This document shows positions 15,835 to 24,510 of a DNA stretch of 64,000 nucleotides, piece by piece. The position numbers and the translations under genes are program-made. The notes below the pieces were generated by a model. The model was given only the letters and a program-made list of their open reading frames with translations, was not told the DNA's origin and did not search any database. The first letter of the stretch is position 1. Every line of letters starts with the position of its first letter. The stretch comes from Patescibacteria group bacterium (lineage in GTDB: Bacteria > Patescibacteriota > Microgenomatia > Levybacterales > GWA1-39-11): NCBI GenBank assembly GCA_035549295.1, contig DASZRG010000043.1, positions 1,910 to 65,909 of the forward strand. Reading direction: 5' to 3'.

Positions 15835-16374
15835 CTACGCGGTGCCTAGTTGTTCCAGTTTTTCTACCATATGGTCATCACTAATATTTGATACATCAAC
15901 ATTTTGCTGATGCATAAGGATGAGGCCTTGGATGATTTTTCTAGCTTTCGCAGCATCTGCTTTTCTTAGATATGGCACAGAGACTGTATTATCGGCAAAT
16001 GACTGGTCAACAATCTTGAGCGTTGAAAAAAACGGACCCTCATCAAGAAAAACATCAAGAATATTTTTTACATATATGCAGTGGACATTAAAAGATGAAA
16101 AGAACTCTTTTGTAATGACATTTACCTTGAGAGGGTCTATCGTTATCTTATCGGGAAAAAGTGCAAAAGGAAAAACAGATTTTGTTTTGAAAAGAACATG
16201 ATTGGATTTGGAAATGATGAGATTAAATTTTCTCGTATTCTCTGCGACTTTTTTGACATATTCTTTGGCCGCATCTTTGAGTCCCTCTTTGTTGGCTTCA
16301 TCTATAAATTTCTGGCGAGCGGGATCGCTTCTGATCTGACCGTTTTTTGGGTATGATGAAAGTTGATTATCCAT
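15835..16374 (-). CDS. Hypothetical protein (179 aa)
   Basis: A clean ORF with no recognisable motifs. It is convergent with the GxxExxY gene. Confidence 0.5.
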   Translation of the reverse strand: MDNQLSSYPKNGQIRSDPARQKFIDEANKEGLKDAAKEYVKKVAENTRKFNLIISKSNHVLFKTKSVFPFALFPDKITIDPLKVNVITKEFFSSFNVHCIYVKNILDVFLDEGPFFSTLKIVDQSFADNTVSVPYLRKADAAKARKIIQGLILMHQQNVDVSNISDDHMVEKLEQLGTA

Positions 16375-16610
16375 AGCTATCTAAGTTACACAAGAGGGTT
16401 TAAGTTCACACAAAGATTGGCGAAGAAAAGGGTAAGAACTTATCGAGAATATCTAGATCAATACTACAAATAAGCAAATGAATTAAGAAACTCTAAAATG
16501 AATTAATATATAAATATTATTTCGAATTTATATATTTAACAATTTATAATTCATTTGAACTTTATCATTTGCATATTTGCTTATTAAAGCATGGCTCACC
16601 CTCATCCTAA

Positions 16611-16653
16611 CCTTCTCCCCTCAAGGGAGAAGGAAATCAAGGTTTTTTGATTT
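16611..16653 (+). promoter_or_regulatory. Two consecutive hairpins in the msrB upstream region (CCTTCTCCC-CTCAA-GGGAGAAGG, then AAATCAA-GGTTTT-TTGATTT)
   Basis: Perfect inverted repeats are read directly. They overlap the -35 region of the extended -10 promoter at 16663-16671. Confidence 0.35.
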
Positions 16654-16662
16654 GCGATCTCC

Positions 16663-16671
16663 TGATATAAT
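16663..16671 (+). promoter_or_regulatory. Extended -10 element TGATATAAT, 6 nt upstream of the msrB ATG (leaderless configuration)
   Basis: TGnTATAAT lies at 16663-16671 and the ATG at 16678, with no intervening ribosome-binding site. Confidence 0.45.
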
Positions 16672-16677
16672 GTCTAT

Positions 16678-17070
16678 ATGAAATATAATGACCTTACGGA
16701 TGAAGAGAAACACGTTATTGAGGATCGGGGCACTGAGCGCGCGTTTACGGGTGAATATGACGACTTCTATGTTCCGGGGACTTTTATATGTCGTAAATGC
16801 AATCTCCCTCTATTCTCATCAAAAGCAAAATTTGATGCTGGATGTGGATGGCCGGCGTTTGATGATAATTTTCCAAATGCAATTCGTCGCATGGCTGACC
16901 CTGATGGTGAGCGCACTGAAATAGAATGCGCGAATTGCGGAGCACATCTTGGACATGTTTTTGAAGGTGAGCAGATGACTGAGAAAGATACTAGGCACTG
17001 TGTAAATTCACTTTCTATTCGCTTTGTTAAAGAAGGCGATAAAATACCTCCCACAATAACTGAAGAATAG
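16678..17070 (+). CDS. msrB: Peptide-methionine (R)-S-oxide reductase MsrB, cytoplasmic form
   Basis: The ORF carries two CxxC pairs (CRKC, CANC), the motif GCGWPAF and the catalytic RHCVNS. Confidence 0.9.
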   Translation: MKYNDLTDEEKHVIEDRGTERAFTGEYDDFYVPGTFICRKCNLPLFSSKAKFDAGCGWPAFDDNFPNAIRRMADPDGERTEIECANCGAHLGHVFEGEQMTEKDTRHCVNSLSIRFVKEGDKIPPTITEE

Positions 17071-17098
17071 TTGATATAATTTTTCTCCCAGGTCTTTT

Positions 17099-17662
17099 TT
17101 GTTTATGAAGAAGAAAATGTCGTATGGCAAGTTGTTTTCTATATTTCTCGCTGCCGGCTGGGCCTTTGGAGGCGGCTTGGGAGTAATTTTTGAGATGGAA
17201 AAACAACTCGTACACAAGCACCATTTCCTAAGTAAAAAAGAATTTATGTCTCTTTTTGCAATAGGACGCGTCGTTCCAAGTGGAACAGTCACGGCCATTG
17301 CGATCGCCGTCGGCTACAAATACAAAGGGCTTCTCGGAACTTTAGTTGCGCTTCTCGGGGTCATGATTCCAGGTTTTACAATAACTTTGATACTCGCCGC
17401 GCTCTATACTGTTTTTAAACAAAATAATTATTTTGAAATAATAAATGCCAGCATTATGCCAGCGGCAGTAGGCCTCATATTCCTCGCAGCAGTAAATATG
17501 GGAAAAGACGTTTTTCATTCACCGCTTCTTATTGCGTTCGCTCTAGCAGCATTTCTCGCGACCATGCTTGGCATGAGCGTTACACTTGTCATTGGACTCG
17601 GAGCACTACTTGGAATTGTTCTTTTCTCACAAATAAAGGAGGGTCATGATCTCCCTTATTAA
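17099..17662 (+). CDS. chrA: Chromate transporter ChrA family, N-terminal-half homolog (short-chain CHR)
   Basis: A 187 aa polytopic membrane protein with ChrA-like sequence. It is paired with a second half-size paralog immediately downstream. Confidence 0.75.
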   Translation: MFMKKKMSYGKLFSIFLAAGWAFGGGLGVIFEMEKQLVHKHHFLSKKEFMSLFAIGRVVPSGTVTAIAIAVGYKYKGLLGTLVALLGVMIPGFTITLILAALYTVFKQNNYFEIINASIMPAAVGLIFLAAVNMGKDVFHSPLLIAFALAAFLATMLGMSVTLVIGLGALLGIVLFSQIKEGHDLPY

Positions 17663-18179
17663 TCTCCTTTGGATATTTGTAGTCGATACAGTCATAACTT
17701 TTGGAAATGGCCCAGTCATACTACCGCTTCTCAATCAATCCCTAGTTCAACAGCTTCATGTTATCTCAAGCGATCAACTTCTTTATGCATATGCAATAGG
17801 AAGAGTAACACCCGGGCAGGTAAATCTTTATATTGCAGCTGTTGGATATTTTCTTTTTGGACCAGTGGGTGCAGTTTTATCCTCTATCTCAATAATTCTT
17901 CCTGGATTTTTGATGATTCCAATGGTCGCATGGTATGAAAAATTTCACAAAGTATCGATCATCAACAATCTAATAAAAGGAATAACAGTTGTATCAATCG
18001 GACTGATATTTACAGCAACAGTTGCCATCGGTCAGGATGTTTTGAAAGGAGTTAACACCTGGATCGTTTTCCTATCAGTTATTGTTTTTAACAGAGTATT
18101 TAAAATAAACGGCTTCCTGAGCTTCATCGCCGGAAGCGTACTGGGAATAGCAATCTATTTCTTCCCCCTCCACCACTAA
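17646..18179 (+). CDS. chrA: Chromate transporter ChrA family, C-terminal-half homolog (short-chain CHR)
   Basis: A 177 aa polytopic membrane protein. It overlaps the upstream partner by 17 nt, as is typical of short-chain CHR pairs. Confidence 0.75.
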   Translation: MISLINLLWIFVVDTVITFGNGPVILPLLNQSLVQQLHVISSDQLLYAYAIGRVTPGQVNLYIAAVGYFLFGPVGAVLSSISIILPGFLMIPMVAWYEKFHKVSIINNLIKGITVVSIGLIFTATVAIGQDVLKGVNTWIVFLSVIVFNRVFKINGFLSFIAGSVLGIAIYFFPLHH

Positions 18180-18236
18180 ATTACCCAAGCTTGACAACTA
18201 CCACTAAGAATTGCAATCCGATATAATTCATTTCAA

Positions 18237-18794
18237 ATGGATTCATCACCTGACTTAAAAGAAGGAAGAGGCTTAACCAGTTCTATTGATTTCTCCAGGG
18301 CACCGACTGAAATTCACGGCTATAGCTTCGGCGAACCTATTGATAGAAGTAATTATACAAGCTTTCTTATTGACGATTTCAAAAGATCAAGAGGAAAAGC
18401 TGCAGCACAAGTATATTCGTGGGAATGGATGAAAAACCACACTGGTGTAGATATTCCACGTTTATTAACACAATTTGTGCAAAGTGGTGGATTAAGCGTA
18501 TTGACCCCCGAAGAATCTTCAAGAGTTTTACAAGAATTTAGTAGAGAAGGTAGACACAAAAGAACAATAAATCAAATATCATATGAGGAAGATAAATCTT
18601 TTTCATCTCATCTATCCAAACAAATAATGGATGTTGTAAAAATACATAATAATCAAGGGAAAGCAATTATATTAAACGGACAAGATCATCAGGTCGGAGT
18701 AATTGATGAGAGCGTAATAGGAATGAGCAGAGATGACTTTCTGAAATGGCAGGCCACGGATGCTCAAAAAGATGAGAGCCTCTTAAGAGGATGA
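18237..18794 (+). CDS. Hypothetical protein (185 aa)
   Basis: Clean ORF with no recognised motifs. Confidence 0.5.
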   Translation: MDSSPDLKEGRGLTSSIDFSRAPTEIHGYSFGEPIDRSNYTSFLIDDFKRSRGKAAAQVYSWEWMKNHTGVDIPRLLTQFVQSGGLSVLTPEESSRVLQEFSREGRHKRTINQISYEEDKSFSSHLSKQIMDVVKIHNNQGKAIILNGQDHQVGVIDESVIGMSRDDFLKWQATDAQKDESLLRG

Positions 18795-18805
18795 CCCCAT
18801 AATCT

Positions 18806-18850
18806 TAATTGATGTAGACTTAATTTTTGTCGGGGACAAATTTGAGGGCT
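18806..18850. repeat. Direct repeat copy 1: duplicated msrB 3' end (last 9 codons, ALKFVPDKN-stop, plus about 15 nt of 3' UTR)
   Basis: The 31 nt core at 18820-18850 matches 19849-19879 with one mismatch, and similarity extends back to 18806 and 19834. Confidence 0.8.
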
Positions 18851-18856
18851 GATTTT

Positions 18857-19753
18857 TTATTGTTCATTTGCAACTCTTTCAAGATCTTGACCATTAATCT
18901 TGCCCATTTTAATACTATCTGTTACAAGTCTATTTGAAGGATTTGCTGTTTCTAGGATCACTTCTTCAGTTACGCGCACACCGAATTGACCTAATTTATC
19001 GGTTAGGTTTCTGTGAGTATCTCCTATTGTAATTAGAACCTTTAGCTGTCCCAAACTTAATTTTTGAAGTAAATCTGGATCTTTTTCGACTAAGGACGCT
19101 ATTTGTTGACCAAATTGACCTACCATAAACCATTCCCTTAAAGACTCAAATGCAACTGTATTTATAATTTTAGCCTTTTCCACTTCTGAGCCTTGTCCAG
19201 TAATTCCATAAATAACATCTCCTTGCTCTATCATCCCGCTTCTTAACTCATCTCCCTCTTCATTATCTACATCAAAAAAGCTTACTCTTGTCTGTGTGCC
19301 AGAAATTGCATCTGCAATTCTGCGATTAAAGGGGTACTGAACAAAATCTTGAACATCCCTATTATCCTGTGCCGATTCACCCGTATCTGCAAGAAAATCT
19401 AAACCTTCTTGTAAATTTTTAGTCCAGCCAAGTCCTTCAAGTAAATAGATATCTGCATCGCTAACTTGCTGCTCATAGCTTTGGTCGCCTAATTCCTCAG
19501 GCGTAGCATGTCTTCCGTATCTAATATGAGTATGGATACCTTGACCAAATTCACTTAAGAACTGGTAACCCTGGCCTAATTCTTCATCTTCTTGCAATCT
19601 ACTAGGAGGCACCAAAGGCGAAATTCTCTCTTTCTTTTGTGGTTCTTGAATAACATAATCTCCGTTTTCCTTAAAAAAGGAATTATTATGCCATGCCACT
19701 TGCGCATCAAGTCTACTATGTATACCTTGCTCAGCTGTATCGTCAATACTCAT
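18857..19753 (-). CDS. Hypothetical acidic protein (298 aa), flanked by the msrB 3'-end direct repeats
   Basis: Clean ORF. A TGTTATATT -10-like element lies 5 nt upstream of its ATG. Confidence 0.5.
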   Translation of the reverse strand: MSIDDTAEQGIHSRLDAQVAWHNNSFFKENGDYVIQEPQKKERISPLVPPSRLQEDEELGQGYQFLSEFGQGIHTHIRYGRHATPEELGDQSYEQQVSDADIYLLEGLGWTKNLQEGLDFLADTGESAQDNRDVQDFVQYPFNRRIADAISGTQTRVSFFDVDNEEGDELRSGMIEQGDVIYGITGQGSEVEKAKIINTVAFESLREWFMVGQFGQQIASLVEKDPDLLQKLSLGQLKVLITIGDTHRNLTDKLGQFGVRVTEEVILETANPSNRLVTDSIKMGKINGQDLERVANEQ

Positions 19754-19833
19754 GTTCTCAATATAACATAGGTTTTATATAAAGATTTAAAAATTCTAGA
19801 ATTTAGCTTAAAATTGTAACACTAAAGGAATTT

Positions 19834-19879
19834 GAATTGATTTATATATTAATTTTTGTCGGGGACGAATTTGAGGGCG
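19834..19879. repeat. Direct repeat copy 2: the functional 3' end of msrB2
   Basis: See copy 1. This copy encodes the actual C-terminus of the 19849..20397 gene. Confidence 0.8.
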
Positions 19880-20397
19880 ATGGAATTCATGCAATAGCGC
19901 TTGCCTGTGGGCTGTGGGCCATCGTCAAAGACGTGGCCCAAGTGGCCGCCGCATTTATCAAGAACTTCTATTCTTGGCTCGCCAGGAATACTATCATCTT
20001 CGCGAAGGACTAATGCATCAAGCTTAATAGGTGCCCAAAATGATGGCCAGCCAGTACCGGAGTCATATTTTTGCTCAGAGCGGAAAACAGGCTCGTTACA
20101 ACCAACGCTGTAATATGTTCCTTTTCGAGTCTCGTGATCTAGCGCTCCAGTAAAGGGCACTTCTGTCCCGGCCTGCCTGAGTATATTGAACTGCTCAGGA
20201 GTCAAGATTTTTTTCCACTCGGCGTCAGACTTGAACTCTGATTTGTCGAAGGATCCGGAGATGATCTTGGCGGTGCTCGCTGAGTTAGAGGTATTAGGAA
20301 TGTTAGTATTGTTAGAAACGAACCTTAGATAAACTAAAACACCGATAAGTACGAAAGCGACTGCGATAAAGGGTAGCTTGTTTTTCATGATGAGCAT
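19849..20397 (-). CDS. msrB: Exported or membrane-anchored MsrB (peptide-methionine (R)-S-oxide reductase)
   Basis: An N-terminal TM or signal segment ([17 protein letters not shown]) is followed by an MsrB domain ([24 protein letters not shown]). Confidence 0.85.
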
Positions 20398-20615
20398 TTA
20401 CCTCCTGGTGCGCAAACGCCCCGGGGCATACTTGATGGCGATGCATGCGAACAATTTTCAACATTATCACACAAAAGCTTGGGTTTGCTGTGAATGAGGG
20501 CTTGTCTGTTGTTTATCTTCTGACTTAGAAAGAATAAAACCAAAGCAGAAAATATGATTAGAAGAAATAAAAATAAGTTGTTGTTTGATTTATTTTTTTC
20601 CTGCTTTTTCGTCAT
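20385..20615 (-). CDS. Possible small membrane protein (76 aa) with a Cys-rich C-terminal tail
   Basis: The ORF lies between the CcdA-Trx gene and msrB2, with one TM segment and a CDNVENC ... CAPGGKC tail. It overlaps the msrB2 start by 13 nt and has no homology support. Confidence 0.25.
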
Positions 20616-20649
20616 GTATAGAGTATACCAATAAACAAATGTTAAAGGG

Positions 20650-20700
20650 TTAACGAATAAATTGTCTGATTCTGGACTTCCTCATTGCTTCGCAATGAGT
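20650..20700 (-). terminator. Long imperfect hairpin downstream of the CcdA-Trx gene (core CTCATTGC-TTC-GCAATGAG, with flanking ATTCTGGAC / GCCAGAAT)
   Basis: The inverted repeat is read directly. It has only a weak U tract, so it is a candidate terminator or stability element. Confidence 0.35.
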
Positions 20701-20800
20701 CGCCAGAATGACAATTCGACTAGAGCACATCGATACCCCAATCTCGACCCGACTCTCAAGAATTCGGCAAAACGGAGTGAATATTACGAATACAGAAGAA

Positions 20801-22582
20801 TCAGCCAAATGTAAAAGCAAACACTTGAATTCCTGGGGAGAATTCGAGATGCAGTAAGTGTTGGCCAGGTTTACCATGAAGATTGATCAAATCGTAAAGG
20901 CGATCTTGATCTATTGTCACAGTACCGTTTTTAACATCCGCGCCTGAACTCGAATCATCGACTACCTTACCATCCATCAGCACCTTAACGGATCCATTTC
21001 CGCTCGCCGGCTTGTGCATGACAAGATATACATGTTCTGCGGAAAACTTGTATTCCAAAACTGCATTATTACCGGTAGTTGAGTCTTCATCAGCAACTTG
21101 CCAGTTTCCACCAAAATTAAATGAATTAACCGGAATATCAGGTGCAAGATTTAAGTTTTTTTGATTGCCATTATTTATTGATCCATTTGGATAATAGTAT
21201 TCCATTCTTGAGGTACCAACATAAGTCTCAGGTGAAATCTCCTCAGTCGGGGTCTGGTCGGGCATATTAGATAGAGAGCCAGATATTTTTGCTCCCGATT
21301 CTTTTAGAAGCTCACGTATCGCTTCTTCTGACTGGTCATATTCTCCTTCACCAAAATGAGTTCTTCTGACTACTCCATTTTTGTCTATTAGATATTCCGC
21401 TGGCCAATATTGATTTGAGAAAGCATTCCAAGTCGCATAATCGTTGTCCTGAGCAACTGGATAGTGAATATTGTATTGCTTTATTGCATTTGCGACGTTT
21501 GTCGTATCATGCTCAAATGCAAATTCTGGGGTATGAACACCTATTACAACAAATCCATCATCTTTATATTTGTCATACCACGAAGTGACAAATGGCAGTG
21601 TGCGAATACAATTTATACAGGTGTATGTCCAGAAATCTATAAGAACAACTTTTCCTCGAAGATCTTTGAGTGACAGTACCTGCCTGCCGGCAGGCAGGTT
21701 CAGCCAATGATTTATACCAGTTATTTCTGGTGCCGGATAATTTTCATTGAGCAGACCATTAGTGCTTGGAGAAGTTGGCATCGGACTAAAAGGTTGTCCC
21801 ACAATATTTTTGTTTTGACTATTCCCTTTTATACTGTTCAGCTGAGATGTAACCGCAGAGTTGCTTTCGATACTAGTTATGAAGTTTGAATATGAAGGAA
21901 TAGCATTTAGAAGGTTTGCTTCAAGAACTTTGTCATAATTTGAAAATATGAGGAGTGCTGTCGCAATAATTATTACTCCAAAAATTTTCTGGAGATTTCC
22001 TGTATATTTATTAAGTGATCTACTCTTTTGCACAAATCTTTGTCCGGCGTATGAGAAAAGAAACAGTGGAATTCCAACACCTACAAGATAAACAAAAGTT
22101 ACAAGAATAATACTTGCCCCAACTGTGCGAGTCGCAGAAAGCGTTGCAATAGTTGCAAGAATTGGACCTGCACATGGAGCCCAAACAACACCTAGCGCAA
22201 GACCCGAAATAAAACCAGGTAAAAAGCCTCCCGCGAAGCGGGATCCGGCTCCGCCGGATAATTTTCCTGCAAACCCAGACACAAATCCCTCGACAATTCT
22301 AGTCAAGCTTGGAATAACCATTGTTGCACCCAAAAATAGAAGTATTAGAACAGCAACAATTCTTAAAATATTTGGATCAAAACCAAATAATTTAACAAGA
22401 TACGAAATTGATAAAGTTATAAAACCGAAAGAAAGAAGTATTCCAAGTGTTAAACCGAACGGTCTTCTGTGATCACCTCCGGCTGCCGCAGATGAGAGAA
22501 CAATAGGAAGGAGAGGCCATATACATGGGGCAGCAATCGTTACCAGACCAGATAGAAATGCAAAAAACAAAAGAATAACCAT
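20801..22582 (-). CDS. Fusion of a CcdA/DsbD-type thiol-disulfide transporter with a TlpA/ResA-like thioredoxin domain
   Basis: The N-terminal polytopic region has a conserved Cys (AAPCIWPLLP, WAPCAGP), as in CcdA. A thioredoxin fold (LIDFWTYTCINCIRTLP) follows, then an Asn/Ser-rich C-terminal domain. Confidence 0.8.
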   Translation of the reverse strand: MVILLFFAFLSGLVTIAAPCIWPLLPIVLSSAAAGGDHRRPFGLTLGILLSFGFITLSISYLVKLFGFDPNILRIVAVLILLFLGATMVIPSLTRIVEGFVSGFAGKLSGGAGSRFAGGFLPGFISGLALGVVWAPCAGPILATIATLSATRTVGASIILVTFVYLVGVGIPLFLFSYAGQRFVQKSRSLNKYTGNLQKIFGVIIIATALLIFSNYDKVLEANLLNAIPSYSNFITSIESNSAVTSQLNSIKGNSQNKNIVGQPFSPMPTSPSTNGLLNENYPAPEITGINHWLNLPAGRQVLSLKDLRGKVVLIDFWTYTCINCIRTLPFVTSWYDKYKDDGFVVIGVHTPEFAFEHDTTNVANAIKQYNIHYPVAQDNDYATWNAFSNQYWPAEYLIDKNGVVRRTHFGEGEYDQSEEAIRELLKESGAKISGSLSNMPDQTPTEEISPETYVGTSRMEYYYPNGSINNGNQKNLNLAPDIPVNSFNFGGNWQVADEDSTTGNNAVLEYKFSAEHVYLVMHKPASGNGSVKVLMDGKVVDDSSSGADVKNGTVTIDQDRLYDLINLHGKPGQHLLHLEFSPGIQVFAFTFG

Positions 22583-22647
22583 AACTACGTAATACCCTCT
22601 GATAATCCCGCGTCATAACGATCGGCGGTCGGGATCATCGCAAAATA

Positions 22648-23148
22648 TTATTTTGCAACGTGCCATATACCACCAATTCCGTCACCATATGCATCGCCAG
22701 AATCTTTGTCTTTTTCGTAGTAATACAATGGCTTTCCATCCCATGCATATTGGGTAGATCCATCGTCACGCTTGATAGTTGATAGATGTACTGGCATAGG
22801 AGATGGAGCGGCTCCAGTCATAAGATATGGCGGCCAAATTGTCGCGCATTGACCGGTACAATTACTCTTTGTGGCAGTATCTTTATCATATGTATAAAGA
22901 GTCATGTTTTTTGAGTCTGCTGCGATCTCGCCGAGCTTAGCATCCTTCTTCATCATTACAGCACTTTCCTGTGGAACTGCAGTGGGAGTCGGCTGCGCTG
23001 TCATTTTTGCATCTTCAACCATTTTCTGAGCTTCCATCTTGTAGGCTTCCATCTTGTCGGTTGCTCTCTGCCTTTCAACCAAAAAACCGACAAGACCACC
23101 TATCAAAAATGCAACAACGACCAATATCCAAGTTGTTGTTTTATTCAT
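22648..23148 (-). CDS. Secreted or membrane-anchored protein with a COG4315-like repeat (LYTYDKD ... C..C..WPP; secreted repeat of unknown function)
   Basis: An N-terminal TM helix is present. The paired motifs LYTYDKDTATKSNCTGQCATIWPP and LYYYEKDKD match that repeat family. Confidence 0.55.
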   Translation of the reverse strand: MNKTTTWILVVVAFLIGGLVGFLVERQRATDKMEAYKMEAQKMVEDAKMTAQPTPTAVPQESAVMMKKDAKLGEIAADSKNMTLYTYDKDTATKSNCTGQCATIWPPYLMTGAAPSPMPVHLSTIKRDDGSTQYAWDGKPLYYYEKDKDSGDAYGDGIGGIWHVAK

Positions 23149-23297
23149 ACTAATTCACCTCCCATCTGAGAGAATTATTTTTTAAAAATATCACGGGCAG
23201 GAAGAATGACCTTAGTAAAGCAAAATAGGCACGATATGTCAACTTGCAAATCAGTGTTTAAAACGTTATAAACAAGAATAATACAAATCAGATATAC

Positions 23298-23681
23298 ATG
23301 ATAAAAGGCATTGATTCAATACTTATAGGAAGCAGTAACGCAGCAAAACTTGCTGAATTTTATCGCGAAGTAGTTGGGCTCAAACAAACAATGGAATTTG
23401 AAATGGGCGAAAATGGTGAAAGCGGATTTTCATTTCAAGTAGGCGACCAATCTCTTGCGATCCTTGATCATTCTGAAGTTGTCGGTAAAAACAAAGCTCC
23501 TGGAAGACTTATCATCAACTTTGAAGTAAGCGATATTGAAAAAGAAGTTGCACGACTTGAAAGGCAGGATGTAAAGAAACAACAGGATATATATCATGTA
23601 GAAGGATATGGACTTATTGCGACATTTATAGATCCCGATGGCAACTATTTTCAAGTTGTTCAAATAAAAGCCGCGAATTAG
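23298..23681 (+). CDS. VOC / glyoxalase-family protein
   Basis: A 127 aa beta-alpha-beta-beta-beta module with glyoxalase-like sequence (IDSILIGSSNAAKLAEFYREVVGL). Confidence 0.65.
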   Translation: MIKGIDSILIGSSNAAKLAEFYREVVGLKQTMEFEMGENGESGFSFQVGDQSLAILDHSEVVGKNKAPGRLIINFEVSDIEKEVARLERQDVKKQQDIYHVEGYGLIATFIDPDGNYFQVVQIKAAN

Positions 23682-23745
23682 TTGAAAATTAATTCAAAAT
23701 CTTCAATACTGTGCTTGCAAAATATGATTTAGATGTTATTATATT

Positions 23746-24381
23746 TTGTGTCCTATGGAAGAAGATCAACCTAGTGAAATTTTTCAGGCCCCCCCAGAAT
23801 ACCAAAGCAGACTCTCGCGTCAAAATTCCGGCGGATCTGGCAAACGCTATCTTATAATCATAATCTTTATTGTTGTCCTTGTTGTAATAATTTTAGGAGT
23901 ATTTAAATTCTTACGAGGAGGAAAAAATACAGACGCAGATATTATGCCAACGCCAACCTCTGAAATTGCTCCTTCAGATACTCCTTCACCAACTCCTATT
24001 AACGGCAGTCCAACACCAACTGGTGCAGTTTCGACCACCCCAAGCCCTTCCACTACTCCGGGCGCATCATCAAGTATCGACAAAGCTACAGGTCTTGATA
24101 GAAGCAAACTAGCAATACATGTCCTAAATGGAAGCGGCGTGTCTGGTGCGTCAAAAAAAGCTAGCGATTTCCTGGAAGGACTTGGCTATAACGTTGTCGA
24201 ATCAGGAAATGCGGAGAATTTTGACTACGACAACTCGGAAATACAAATAAAGGCAAGCGATAGTAAATATCTTGCTCTTTTGAAAAAAGATGCTTCCTCA
24301 AAATATACGATTGGAAGCACTTCAGCAACCCTGAAAGAATCCGGACGAGACGACGCCGTATTCATCGTTGGAAAAGAGTAA
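23746..24381 (+). CDS. Membrane-anchored LytR_C (LytR/CpsA/Psr C-terminal) domain protein
   Basis: A TM helix is followed by a Pro/Thr/Ser-rich linker and a LytR_C-like domain (LAIHVLNGSGVSGASKKASDFLEGLGYNVVESGNAENFDY). Confidence 0.65.
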   Translation: MCPMEEDQPSEIFQAPPEYQSRLSRQNSGGSGKRYLIIIIFIVVLVVIILGVFKFLRGGKNTDADIMPTPTSEIAPSDTPSPTPINGSPTPTGAVSTTPSPSTTPGASSSIDKATGLDRSKLAIHVLNGSGVSGASKKASDFLEGLGYNVVESGNAENFDYDNSEIQIKASDSKYLALLKKDASSKYTIGSTSATLKESGRDDAVFIVGKE

Positions 24382-24387
24382 TTGCAA

Positions 24388-24498
24388 GGGTATCACGGGT
24401 ACCATGGGTATCACGAGTATCACAAGCTATTCATTTTTCAGCAATAACTGTCCACTATAGCACGTGATACTCTTGATACTTGTGATACACTTGATACC
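24388..24498. repeat. Inverted pair of four-unit 9-mer arrays (GTATCACGG-like units) separated by a 33 nt spacer
   Basis: Left arm GGGTATCACGGGTACCATGGGTATCACGAGTATCACAAGC. Right arm GCACGTGATACTCTTGATACTTGTGATACACTTGATACC, which is the reverse complement at about 75% identity. It starts 7 nt after the LytR_C gene stop. Confidence 0.85.
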
Positions 24499-24510
24499 TC
24501 TCATATAACC

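Follow-up and report, generated by a model that had tools for sequence, protein, structure and literature searches.

DipZ and a membrane-anchored methionine-(R)-sulfoxide reductase at a Patescibacteria locus: a candidate cell-surface reductant pathway

The four genes and their products

A stretch of 64,000 nucleotides (nt) from a Patescibacteria group bacterium (contig DASZRG010000043.1, positions 1,910 to 65,909 of the forward strand; hereafter the window) carries a locus in which a membrane-anchored methionine sulfoxide reductase B (MsrB) is encoded close to DipZ, a transporter fused to a thioredoxin. The locus was read from the list of open reading frames (ORFs), and families were assigned with Pfam and NCBIfam profile searches. 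A preliminary description of the window had placed four consecutive minus-strand genes here, and the ORF list gives all four of them, with the following matches (E, expectation value):

19849-20397, minus strand: membrane-anchored MsrB, 182 amino acids (aa); SelR, E 1e-42; TIGR00357, 163.4 bits (cutoff 113)
20385-20615, minus strand: four-Cys mini-protein, 76 aa; no Pfam or NCBIfam family
20801-22582, minus strand: DipZ, 593 aa; DsbD_TM 3-214, Redoxin/AhpC-TSA 283-414, Thioredoxin_10 450-593
22648-23148, minus strand: COG4315/Lipoprotein_15 protein, 166 aa; PF03640, E 8e-27, in two stretches

The transporter, thioredoxin and MsrB genes are therefore genetically linked, being consecutive and on one strand. 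The 593-aa protein had been described as a CcdA-type transporter fused to a TlpA-like thioredoxin; both parts are present, but a third, C-terminal domain identifies the protein more precisely as a DipZ. Its CcdA-like domain of six transmembrane segments (aa 1-214, nt 21941-22582; PF02683, 40.8 bits, cutoff 27.1) matches CcdA 5vkv (E 4e-9) and contains one conserved cysteine in each of two P-C motifs, Cys20 (APCIWP) and Cys137 (APCAGP). It is followed by a TlpA/ResA-like thioredoxin domain with the active-site pair C322-I-N-C325 (aa 283-434, nt 21281-21736; Redoxin, 51 bits), which also matches pneumococcal Etrx1/Etrx2 (E ~1e-7), and by a Thioredoxin_10 beta-sandwich that lacks cysteine (aa 450-593, nt 20804-21235; 112.6 bits). 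Residues 283-593 align end to end with the crystallized portion of Mycobacterium tuberculosis DipZ (2hyx/5cyy, E 3e-70), and CINC is found in both; judged by its domains, the protein is a complete DipZ. Six hydrophobic segments stand out in the hydropathy profile, and the loops 22-44, 91-119 and 181-194 are rich in K/R; from this, the N-terminus together with the thioredoxin and sandwich domains is predicted to face outward.

The N-terminal segment of the neighbouring MsrB had been taken for a membrane anchor, and this stands, as hydropathy peaks at 2.44 over aa 10-28 (nt 20314-20370) and the AlphaFold2 model (mean predicted local distance difference test score, pLDDT, 84) has a helix at residues 5-25 (pLDDT ~93), then a linker without order, and a SelR domain of good model quality. 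The start called by NCBI is Met4, at 20388, which gives a product of 179 aa. MsrBs of the same subtype elsewhere bear twin-arginine signals, and the window protein is predicted to be displayed outside the cytoplasmic membrane. Its SelR domain (aa 65-179, nt 19861-20205; PF01641, 145 bits, cutoff 24.9) contains the catalytic Cys169 in RYCMNS, which is invariant across 46 anchored homologues, while the position of the recycling Cys is occupied by Thr (GTGWPSFW); the nearest solved relatives, 2k8d, MsrB2 and MsrB3, all have GTGWPSF. Only two of the four zinc-site cysteines are kept (C100 and C149, the second of each CxxC), giving the pattern S-C-T-gap-C-C. By these residues the protein is a one-Cys MsrB and not of the two-Cys, zinc-containing Escherichia coli type. 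The equivalents of C100 and C149 have been lost jointly in two of the loci surveyed below (L087 and L090), which suggests that a disulfide may stand in the metal's place. An MsrB of the one-Cys class ends each turnover with a sulfenic acid and depends on an external thiol to reduce it, as established for MsrB2 and MsrB3, and a dedicated thioredoxin domain encoded next door would therefore be mechanistically sensible.

Exported MsrB as a neighbor of DipZ

DipZ was surveyed with one genome per species, and the best 80 of more than 580 relatives were examined with 6-kb flanks; L numbers denote individual loci. The core claim of the preliminary description, that an exported MsrB is paired with a CcdA-thioredoxin fusion, is well supported by this survey. 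A co-directional MsrB lies within 700 nt of DipZ at 39 of the 80 loci, with three more nearby or cut by a contig end, and the paired loci span Acidobacteriota, Pseudomonas, Rhizobiales, Steroidobacteraceae, Bdellovibrio, Patescibacteria and others. When the neighbors were clustered, MsrB was the commonest (29 loci, from crude gene calls), followed by an exported MsrA (18) and then by a two-component system. All but one of the 39 DipZ-adjacent MsrBs are extended at the N-terminus by a hydrophobic or twin-arginine segment, and Thr is found at the recycling position in every exported one examined; cytoplasmic MsrBs within DipZ loci have neither feature. It had also been suggested that co-occurrence and co-orientation of the four genes in relatives be checked, and here the outcome is divided, since the dipZ-msrB pair recurs but the four-gene set is not kept.

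Homologues of the anchored MsrB fall into more than 120 clusters (170-195 aa, 66-89% identity), which are from Patescibacteria wherever the source name gives a taxon. Sufficient flank is available for 15 Patescibacteria contexts, and in eight of them dipZ lies immediately upstream (the window, L001, L002, L087, L088, L091, L096 and L100). Distant exported MsrBs usually have MsrA next downstream. MsrA can also belong to the cluster in relatives, unlike in the window: L088, L091 (124-3233) and L101 contain co-directional genes, in this order, for DipZ, an extension-less zinc-type MsrB, MsrA and the anchored MsrB.

A separate observation concerns the export route. Among the exported MsrBs of L001-L160, the twin-arginine motif occurs in 54 proteins with all four zinc-site cysteines and in one with three, and it is missing from all 48 whose site is more degenerate. 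The distribution suggests that the export route may follow the metal cofactor, with a folded metalloprotein leaving by the twin-arginine translocation (Tat) pathway and a metal-free one by the general secretion (Sec) pathway.

Other partners of DipZ and the surroundings of the locus

The preliminary description grouped all four genes into one methionine-repair module, and it is on this point that it has to be revised, because the mini-protein and the COG4315 protein track dipZ and not msrB. The COG4315 protein itself is as described, an anchored repeat protein encoded upstream of dipZ, with an uncleaved-looking hydrophobic helix at aa 6-24 and a PF03640 domain at aa 84-166 (nt 22651-22899; 92.9 bits, cutoff 24.4). 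No Cys precedes residue 97, so that a lipobox Cys is lacking and the protein would be anchored without being a lipoprotein. Across 16 homologues C97-x3-C101, W105 and P106 do not vary, and the WPP and Y-x4-D features conserved in the family are present as well; no solved relative was found, and a PHROGs search with the protein gave nothing. The gene in front of dipZ encodes a COG4315 protein in the window, L001, L002 and L003 and a more distant homologue in L164/L165, in a different neighborhood without MsrB. The homologue in L161 has no dipZ nearby, and a search with the domain hidden Markov model (HMM) found COG4315 in none of the other ~155 DipZ or MsrB loci. In other Patescibacteria (L096, L100 and L170) the slot before dipZ is taken by an anchored thioredoxin. 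The arrangement is thus confined to a narrow Patescibacteria group, and we infer that the protein is no part of the Msr system but a surface client or neighbor of DipZ specific to that lineage.

Between anchor and domain, the COG4315 protein has a Met-rich stalk (aa 25-83, nt 22900-23076) with 7 Met in 59 residues (12%). Stalks of the Patescibacteria subfamily contain 6-19% Met, compared with ~1-5% in the PF03640 domain and 0% in the stalks of two homologues from outside Patescibacteria. The window stalk has the densest 40-aa Met stretch of the 66 window genes, but with 6 Met against 5 for the runners-up. A count of 7 Met or more within 40 consecutive residues is reached by 13 of the 1,683 ORFs from 165 loci, and 11 of these 13 are linked to DipZ, either as the anchored protein encoded upstream (COG4315 in L001-L003 and L164/L165; thioredoxin in L096 and L100) or as DipZ's own linker between membrane and thioredoxin domains (L030, L034, L036 and L043). 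The last four, at aa ~240-290 of proteobacterial DipZ, have 8-11 Met per 40 residues, with runs such as AMMMM, and the same density is reached in the anchored-thioredoxin stalks upstream of dipZ (L096:2090-2617 and L100:721-1314); all of these linkers and thioredoxin stalks have an adjacent Msr gene. An Msr gene adjoins all 12 DipZ genes with at least four linker Met, and over the whole set the association of Met-rich linkers with Msr adjacency is borderline (Mann-Whitney p 0.053, kinship ignored). Two more general descriptions of the stalk were considered and rejected: other anchored proteins of the window lack such a stalk, which is thus no generic trait of the organism's anchored proteins, and it is not universal upstream of dipZ, the thioredoxin stalk of L170 not being Met-rich.

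Further genes recur around dipZ and the anchored msrB in relatives. Upstream of the dipZ cluster, the gene of a 66-70 aa HTH_3 (XRE-type) regulator overlaps that of a 121-122 aa multi-helix membrane protein without family (L096:1511-2072; L002/L172:2089-2654 in L172 coordinates; L164:1261-1826; L170:571-1138), and the two may form a dedicated regulator-sensor pair; the window lacks them and has a divergent glyoxalase gene in that place. In one Patescibacteria contig, the gene of an anchored protein with a fasciclin domain (L096:208-831; PF02469, E 2e-37) lies ~1.8 kb upstream of dipZ, recalling the mpt83-dipZ-mpt70 order of M. tuberculosis. In three Patescibacteria contigs, the anchored msrB is adjoined by the gene of a conserved anchored protein of 173-174 aa, which has the motif ASFAIFTNGTFRIFT and belongs to no Pfam family (L088:3272-3796; L089:5537-6061; L096:932-1453).

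The mini-protein consists of a basic N-terminus, a single transmembrane helix (aa 13-31, nt 20523-20579) and a tail (aa 45-76, nt 20388-20483) with cysteines at 49, 55, 68 and 74 (CDNVENC ... CAPGGKC), and its stop overlaps the NCBI start of msrB in the 4-nt ATGA manner; helix, tail and overlap were all noticed in the preliminary description. In AlphaFold2 the helix is confident; the tail is not (pLDDT ~55) and is modelled with a small hairpin around VC-APGG-KC. When 1.8 billion representatives were searched exhaustively with HMMER, 22 further cluster representatives of 63-76 aa were recovered (E 3e-8 to 6e-4). They share a short basic N-terminus, helix, linker and the design KPKYLCD-x3-A-x-C ... 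(I/V)PKGVC-x-PGGKC(T/S), in which C49, P64, C68, G71 and C74 never vary and at least 90% of the sequences keep C55. None of the 23 representatives belongs to a Pfam family, and PHROGs and PADLOC searches with the mini-protein gave nothing. Membership of the family in FeoB-associated Cys-rich membrane proteins (PF12669) was rejected, as one of 22 members gave a sub-threshold match (E 0.0038); the likeness is one of concept only, a tiny single-helix, Cys-tailed protein beside a large membrane protein. The family is rare, and tblastn together with the family HMM found members only in the window and L001 among 160 DipZ/MsrB loci. Its informative, independent contexts are as follows:

Window: small gene 3' of dipZ across a 185-nt spacer; msrB next
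L001: small gene 17 nt 3' of dipZ; msrB next
L166: small gene 8 nt 3' of dipZ; msrB not next
L167: small gene overlapping the dipZ stop; msrB not next
L170: small gene 1 nt 3' of dipZ; msrB not next
L169: small gene away from dipZ; msrB not next
L171: small gene away from dipZ; msrB not next

Accordingly, dipZ is directly upstream in five of the seven contexts and msrB directly downstream in two; where dipZ and msrB abut each other (L002, L087 and L096), the small gene is absent. The 76-aa ORF is thus a real protein and a companion of DipZ rather than an Msr component. That it might be no gene at all, its Cys tail being a read-through of the msrB ribosome-binding region in which GGAGG encodes the Gly-Gly of PGGKC, was suggested by the position of this GGAGG within the last codons, by an ATG without a Shine-Dalgarno sequence, by a word-index protein search that returned nothing beyond the ORF itself and by the absence of the gene from the three loci just named. 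We consider this hardly credible. The HMMER family has the same architecture with invariant Cys, Pro and Gly, and the PKGVCxPGGKC end is conserved in L166, L167, L170 and L171, which have no downstream msrB, so that the tail is no artefact of a ribosome-binding site; family and dipZ-linked contexts together in effect refute the non-gene reading.

Several other features lie in and around the locus:

16678-17070, plus strand: cytoplasmic zinc-type two-Cys MsrB; PRK05508, 190.6 bits (cutoff 179)
17099-17662 and 17646-18179, plus strand: two half-size Chromate_transp ORFs, 3' of the cytoplasmic msrB; E 5e-31 and 6e-27
20660-20717, minus strand: long imperfect hairpin within the dipZ-to-small-gene spacer, with a perfect 8-bp core at 20681-20699

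The second MsrB, noted before as a cytoplasmic enzyme 3 kb away in company with a split ChrA pair, is confirmed as such; all six of its Cys positions are filled, and it has neither a hydrophobic segment nor an N-terminal extension. Together with the chromate-transporter ORFs it is context and lies outside the module. The reported absence of MsrA was likewise reproduced across the 64-kb window, in which tblastn with MsrA gave no match better than E 2.4 and a GCFWG-type motif is absent in every frame. In L001 and L002 the anchored and the cytoplasmic msrB converge directly, and in the window the ChrA pair and two orphan ORFs intervene, with which PHROGs and PADLOC searches gave nothing. One of the two, an ORF of 298 aa (18857-19753, minus strand), has no Pfam match either. 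A 30-nt direct repeat with 29 of 30 positions identical lies at 18820-18849, just beyond the stop of this orphan, and at 19849-19878, where it forms the 3' end of the anchored msrB (the last 9 codons and the stop). The 1029-nt unit flanked by these two msrB-end copies holds only the 298-aa ORF and looks like an insertion with duplication.

The spacer between dipZ and the small gene measures 185 nt (20616-20800), in comparison with gaps of at most 17 nt in relatives. Its hairpin has a minimum free energy of -51.6 kcal/mol (z -2.65) and no second copy in the window; an Rfam search across 16000-24500, including the hairpin, found nothing credible. It is possibly a terminator, an attenuator or a processing site. 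A TGGTATACT box ends the spacer, 7 nt ahead of the mini-protein ATG, and the spacer bearing it may be an internal promoter for a leaderless transcript of the small gene and msrB; promoter and terminator scans gave scores no better than those of shuffled sequence.

A candidate surface reductant pathway

We consider it probable that the locus encodes a cell-surface reductant pathway of which the best-supported client is the membrane-anchored methionine-(R)-sulfoxide reductase, the other two genes being accessories of DipZ. In such a pathway, cytoplasmic thioredoxin would reduce the Cys20/Cys137 pair of the DipZ membrane domain, which would in turn reduce C322/C325 of the outward-facing thioredoxin domain. 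This domain would then directly reduce the sulfenic acid on Cys169 of MsrB after each turnover, and MsrB would repair Met-R-sulfoxide in surface proteins. One-Cys MsrBs, mammalian MsrB2 and MsrB3 for example, are known to be recycled by such direct reduction. The electron transfer from DipZ to MsrB is deduced here from the genes and their products. DipZ could also keep the invariant CxxxC of the COG4315 protein reduced, and the Met-rich stalk of that protein would be a plausible MsrB substrate. The host, as a member of the Patescibacteria, is expected to have a single membrane, which would explain why each component is tethered by a helix of its own.

The delivery of electrons to a surface or periplasmic thiol-dependent Msr from CcdA/DsbD via a thioredoxin module has been demonstrated in Streptococcus pneumoniae, Streptococcus gordonii, Neisseria, Haemophilus influenzae and Fusobacterium nucleatum. 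The closest likeness is to CcdA1-Etrx1-MsrAB2 and CcdA2-Etrx2 of S. pneumoniae (PMC3914529) and CcdA/SdbB/MsrAB of S. gordonii (PMC7034828), to which the window corresponds in its linked CcdA-type transporter and, by prediction, in a single membrane, a surface TlpA-like thioredoxin and a tethered Msr; the pneumococcal Etrx1/2 have been shown experimentally to reduce surface MsrAB2 using CcdA (PMC3914529). The window differs from the pneumococcal type in that CcdA and thioredoxin form one polypeptide with an extra C-terminal sandwich, the Msr is an MsrB only, without an MsrA domain or gene, this MsrB is of the one-Cys type with an incomplete zinc site, the tethers, known here from genes alone, are transmembrane helices instead of lipid anchors, and a four-Cys mini-protein is interposed. 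Neisseria PilB (Trx-MsrA-MsrB, reduced by DsbD) and the H. influenzae and F. nucleatum MsrAB with Trx/CcdA (PMC13488963, Table 1) are likewise extracytoplasmic thiol-dependent Msrs fed by DsbD/CcdA and a thioredoxin fold, but in these the fusion is on the Msr side, both epimers are served and two membranes are present, whereas the window has the fusion on the transporter side and MsrB only. In Bradyrhizobium japonicum, the periplasmic Msr Blr7043 of the EcfF/OsrA regulon was proposed to need a co-regulated membrane conduit, Bll1027 (a DsbD-beta core), and the anchored periplasmic thioredoxin Bll1026; those genes are separate, at different loci and without a DipZ fusion, and the authors stated their proposal as speculation (PMC3420878).

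M. tuberculosis DipZ (Rv2874; 2HYX, 5CYY) shares with the window protein the three-part architecture and the CINC motif. Its gene neighbors, which we take to be those of the fasciclin proteins MPT70 and MPT83, do not include MsrB. In the open-access literature searched (PMC and bioRxiv), we found no physiological client of DipZ, no paper linking DipZ with Msr (one unrelated paper mentions both terms) and no description of Msr systems in Patescibacteria.

Several observations weigh against the pathway as we propose it. Anchored MsrB is found without an adjoining dipZ in L083, L086, L089, L093, L095, L173 and L174, and at exported-MsrB loci outside Patescibacteria with at least 2 kb of flank, DipZ/CcdA is nearby in 1 of 39; the link is strong seen from DipZ and is not obligatory for MsrB. 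Conversely, the close relative L003 keeps the COG4315-dipZ order without the anchored MsrB, which is missing also from the dipZ loci L164, L166, L167 and L170, and DipZ must therefore serve other clients. Neither thioredoxin nor thioredoxin reductase was found in the 64-kb window, and with MsrA missing from it only the R-epimer would be repairable here. The long spacer with its strong hairpin means that dipZ is perhaps not co-transcribed with the small gene and msrB. Finally, the net positive charge is similar on both flanks of the mini-protein helix, so that the Cys tail could face the cytoplasm. In DsbD, however, the alpha domain relies on a C-x5-C pair downstream of the thioredoxin-like domain (PMC3322552), and because of this analogy and the signal-anchor-like N-terminus, the mini-protein is most likely an outward-facing extra thiol/disulfide relay or client.

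Some of these points would also be expected if DipZ were a general envelope hub, a thiol-disulfide reductase/isomerase for Cys-containing surface proteins with MsrB as an optional client or mere syntenic neighbor. The COG4315 CxxxC protein and the four-Cys mini-protein would be among its clients, and the loci that have dipZ with COG4315 (L003, L164/L165) or with the mini-protein (L166, L167, L170) and no MsrB would follow, as would the 41 of 80 DipZ loci without an adjacent co-directional MsrB; the fasciclin genes that presumably flank M. tuberculosis dipZ and the anchored fasciclin near dipZ in L096 would also fit. Nevertheless, MsrB is by far the commonest DipZ neighbor across phyla, and the MsrB found beside it belongs specifically to the exported one-Cys subtype, which depends on a thiol reductant from outside; we consider this explanation unlikely. 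The two are not exclusive, and a hub with MsrB as its main client comes close to the best explanation. Less probable, in our estimation, is that the cluster handles metal, notably copper, with the Met-rich stalk, the CxxxC and the four-Cys protein as surface ligands of Cu(I) or a different thiophilic metal. DipZ would maintain their thiols in the reduced state, in the manner of ScsB or TlpA with copper-related clients, and MsrB would repair collateral damage. Runs of Met (MM, MMM) are typical Cu(I) ligand motifs and count in its favor, as does the Met content of the COG4315-subfamily stalks, to which the homologue P0013 adds His. The ScsB class of DsbD-like proteins has been tied to copper tolerance (PMC3322552), and there is a weak CopL-family match (E 0.0066), but at 17 bits this is far under the cutoff of 40. 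Moreover, the annotated flanks of the examined dipZ loci contain no copper ATPase, CopZ, CsoR or multicopper oxidase, although no search was aimed at them; the C-x5/6-C ... C-x5-C spacing is no known metal-site signature; and the Msr gene beside every DipZ with at least four linker Met fits methionine redox better, so that we regard copper handling as quite improbable.

A bolder elaboration of the proposed pathway can also be entertained, in which the surface would carry a self-contained catalytic oxidant sink. Met-rich stalks would absorb oxidants, namely the COG4315 stalk here and the anchored-thioredoxin stalk or the DipZ linker in other lineages, and MsrB would regenerate them with electrons from DipZ; the mini-protein would serve as a detachable relay from the DipZ thioredoxin domain to the clients, like the C-x5-C alpha domain of DsbD. 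Composition and gene position would support this elaboration, which we nonetheless regard as distinctly unlikely. It has a counterpart in the hypochlorite-scavenging MrpX-YedY1 (MsrP) system of Azospira suillum (PMC4436054), where a Met-rich exported polypeptide also occurs beside an extracytoplasmic methionine sulfoxide reductase, a resemblance of composition only. MrpX is a small soluble peptide whereas the Met stretch of the window is the stalk of an anchored protein, and the A. suillum reductase is a molybdoenzyme for both epimers whereas the window MsrB is thiol-based and R-specific.

Surface repair by CcdA/DsbD, thioredoxin and Msr is already known and has been elucidated in a few pathogens. 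What is new here, as far as the sequences go, is a fusion on the transporter side, an Msr that is MsrB only, one-Cys and metal-poor, anchoring of all components by helices and a DipZ-associated mini-protein. The combination of the DipZ fusion with an exported one-Cys MsrB is widespread across many phyla and apparently unstudied in the open-access literature searched, and MsrB would give DipZ, which is structurally solved and without an established client, a concrete candidate substrate. The correlation between Tat signal and zinc site suggests, in addition, that the export of MsrBs tracks their cofactor. The unannotated four-Cys family that follows dipZ is a small, tractable target for studying how reductant exporters pass electrons onward. 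To our knowledge, Patescibacteria have no respiratory chain or cytochrome c, and the locus suggests that these bacteria, with their minimal genomes, still invest in the repair of methionine at the cell surface.

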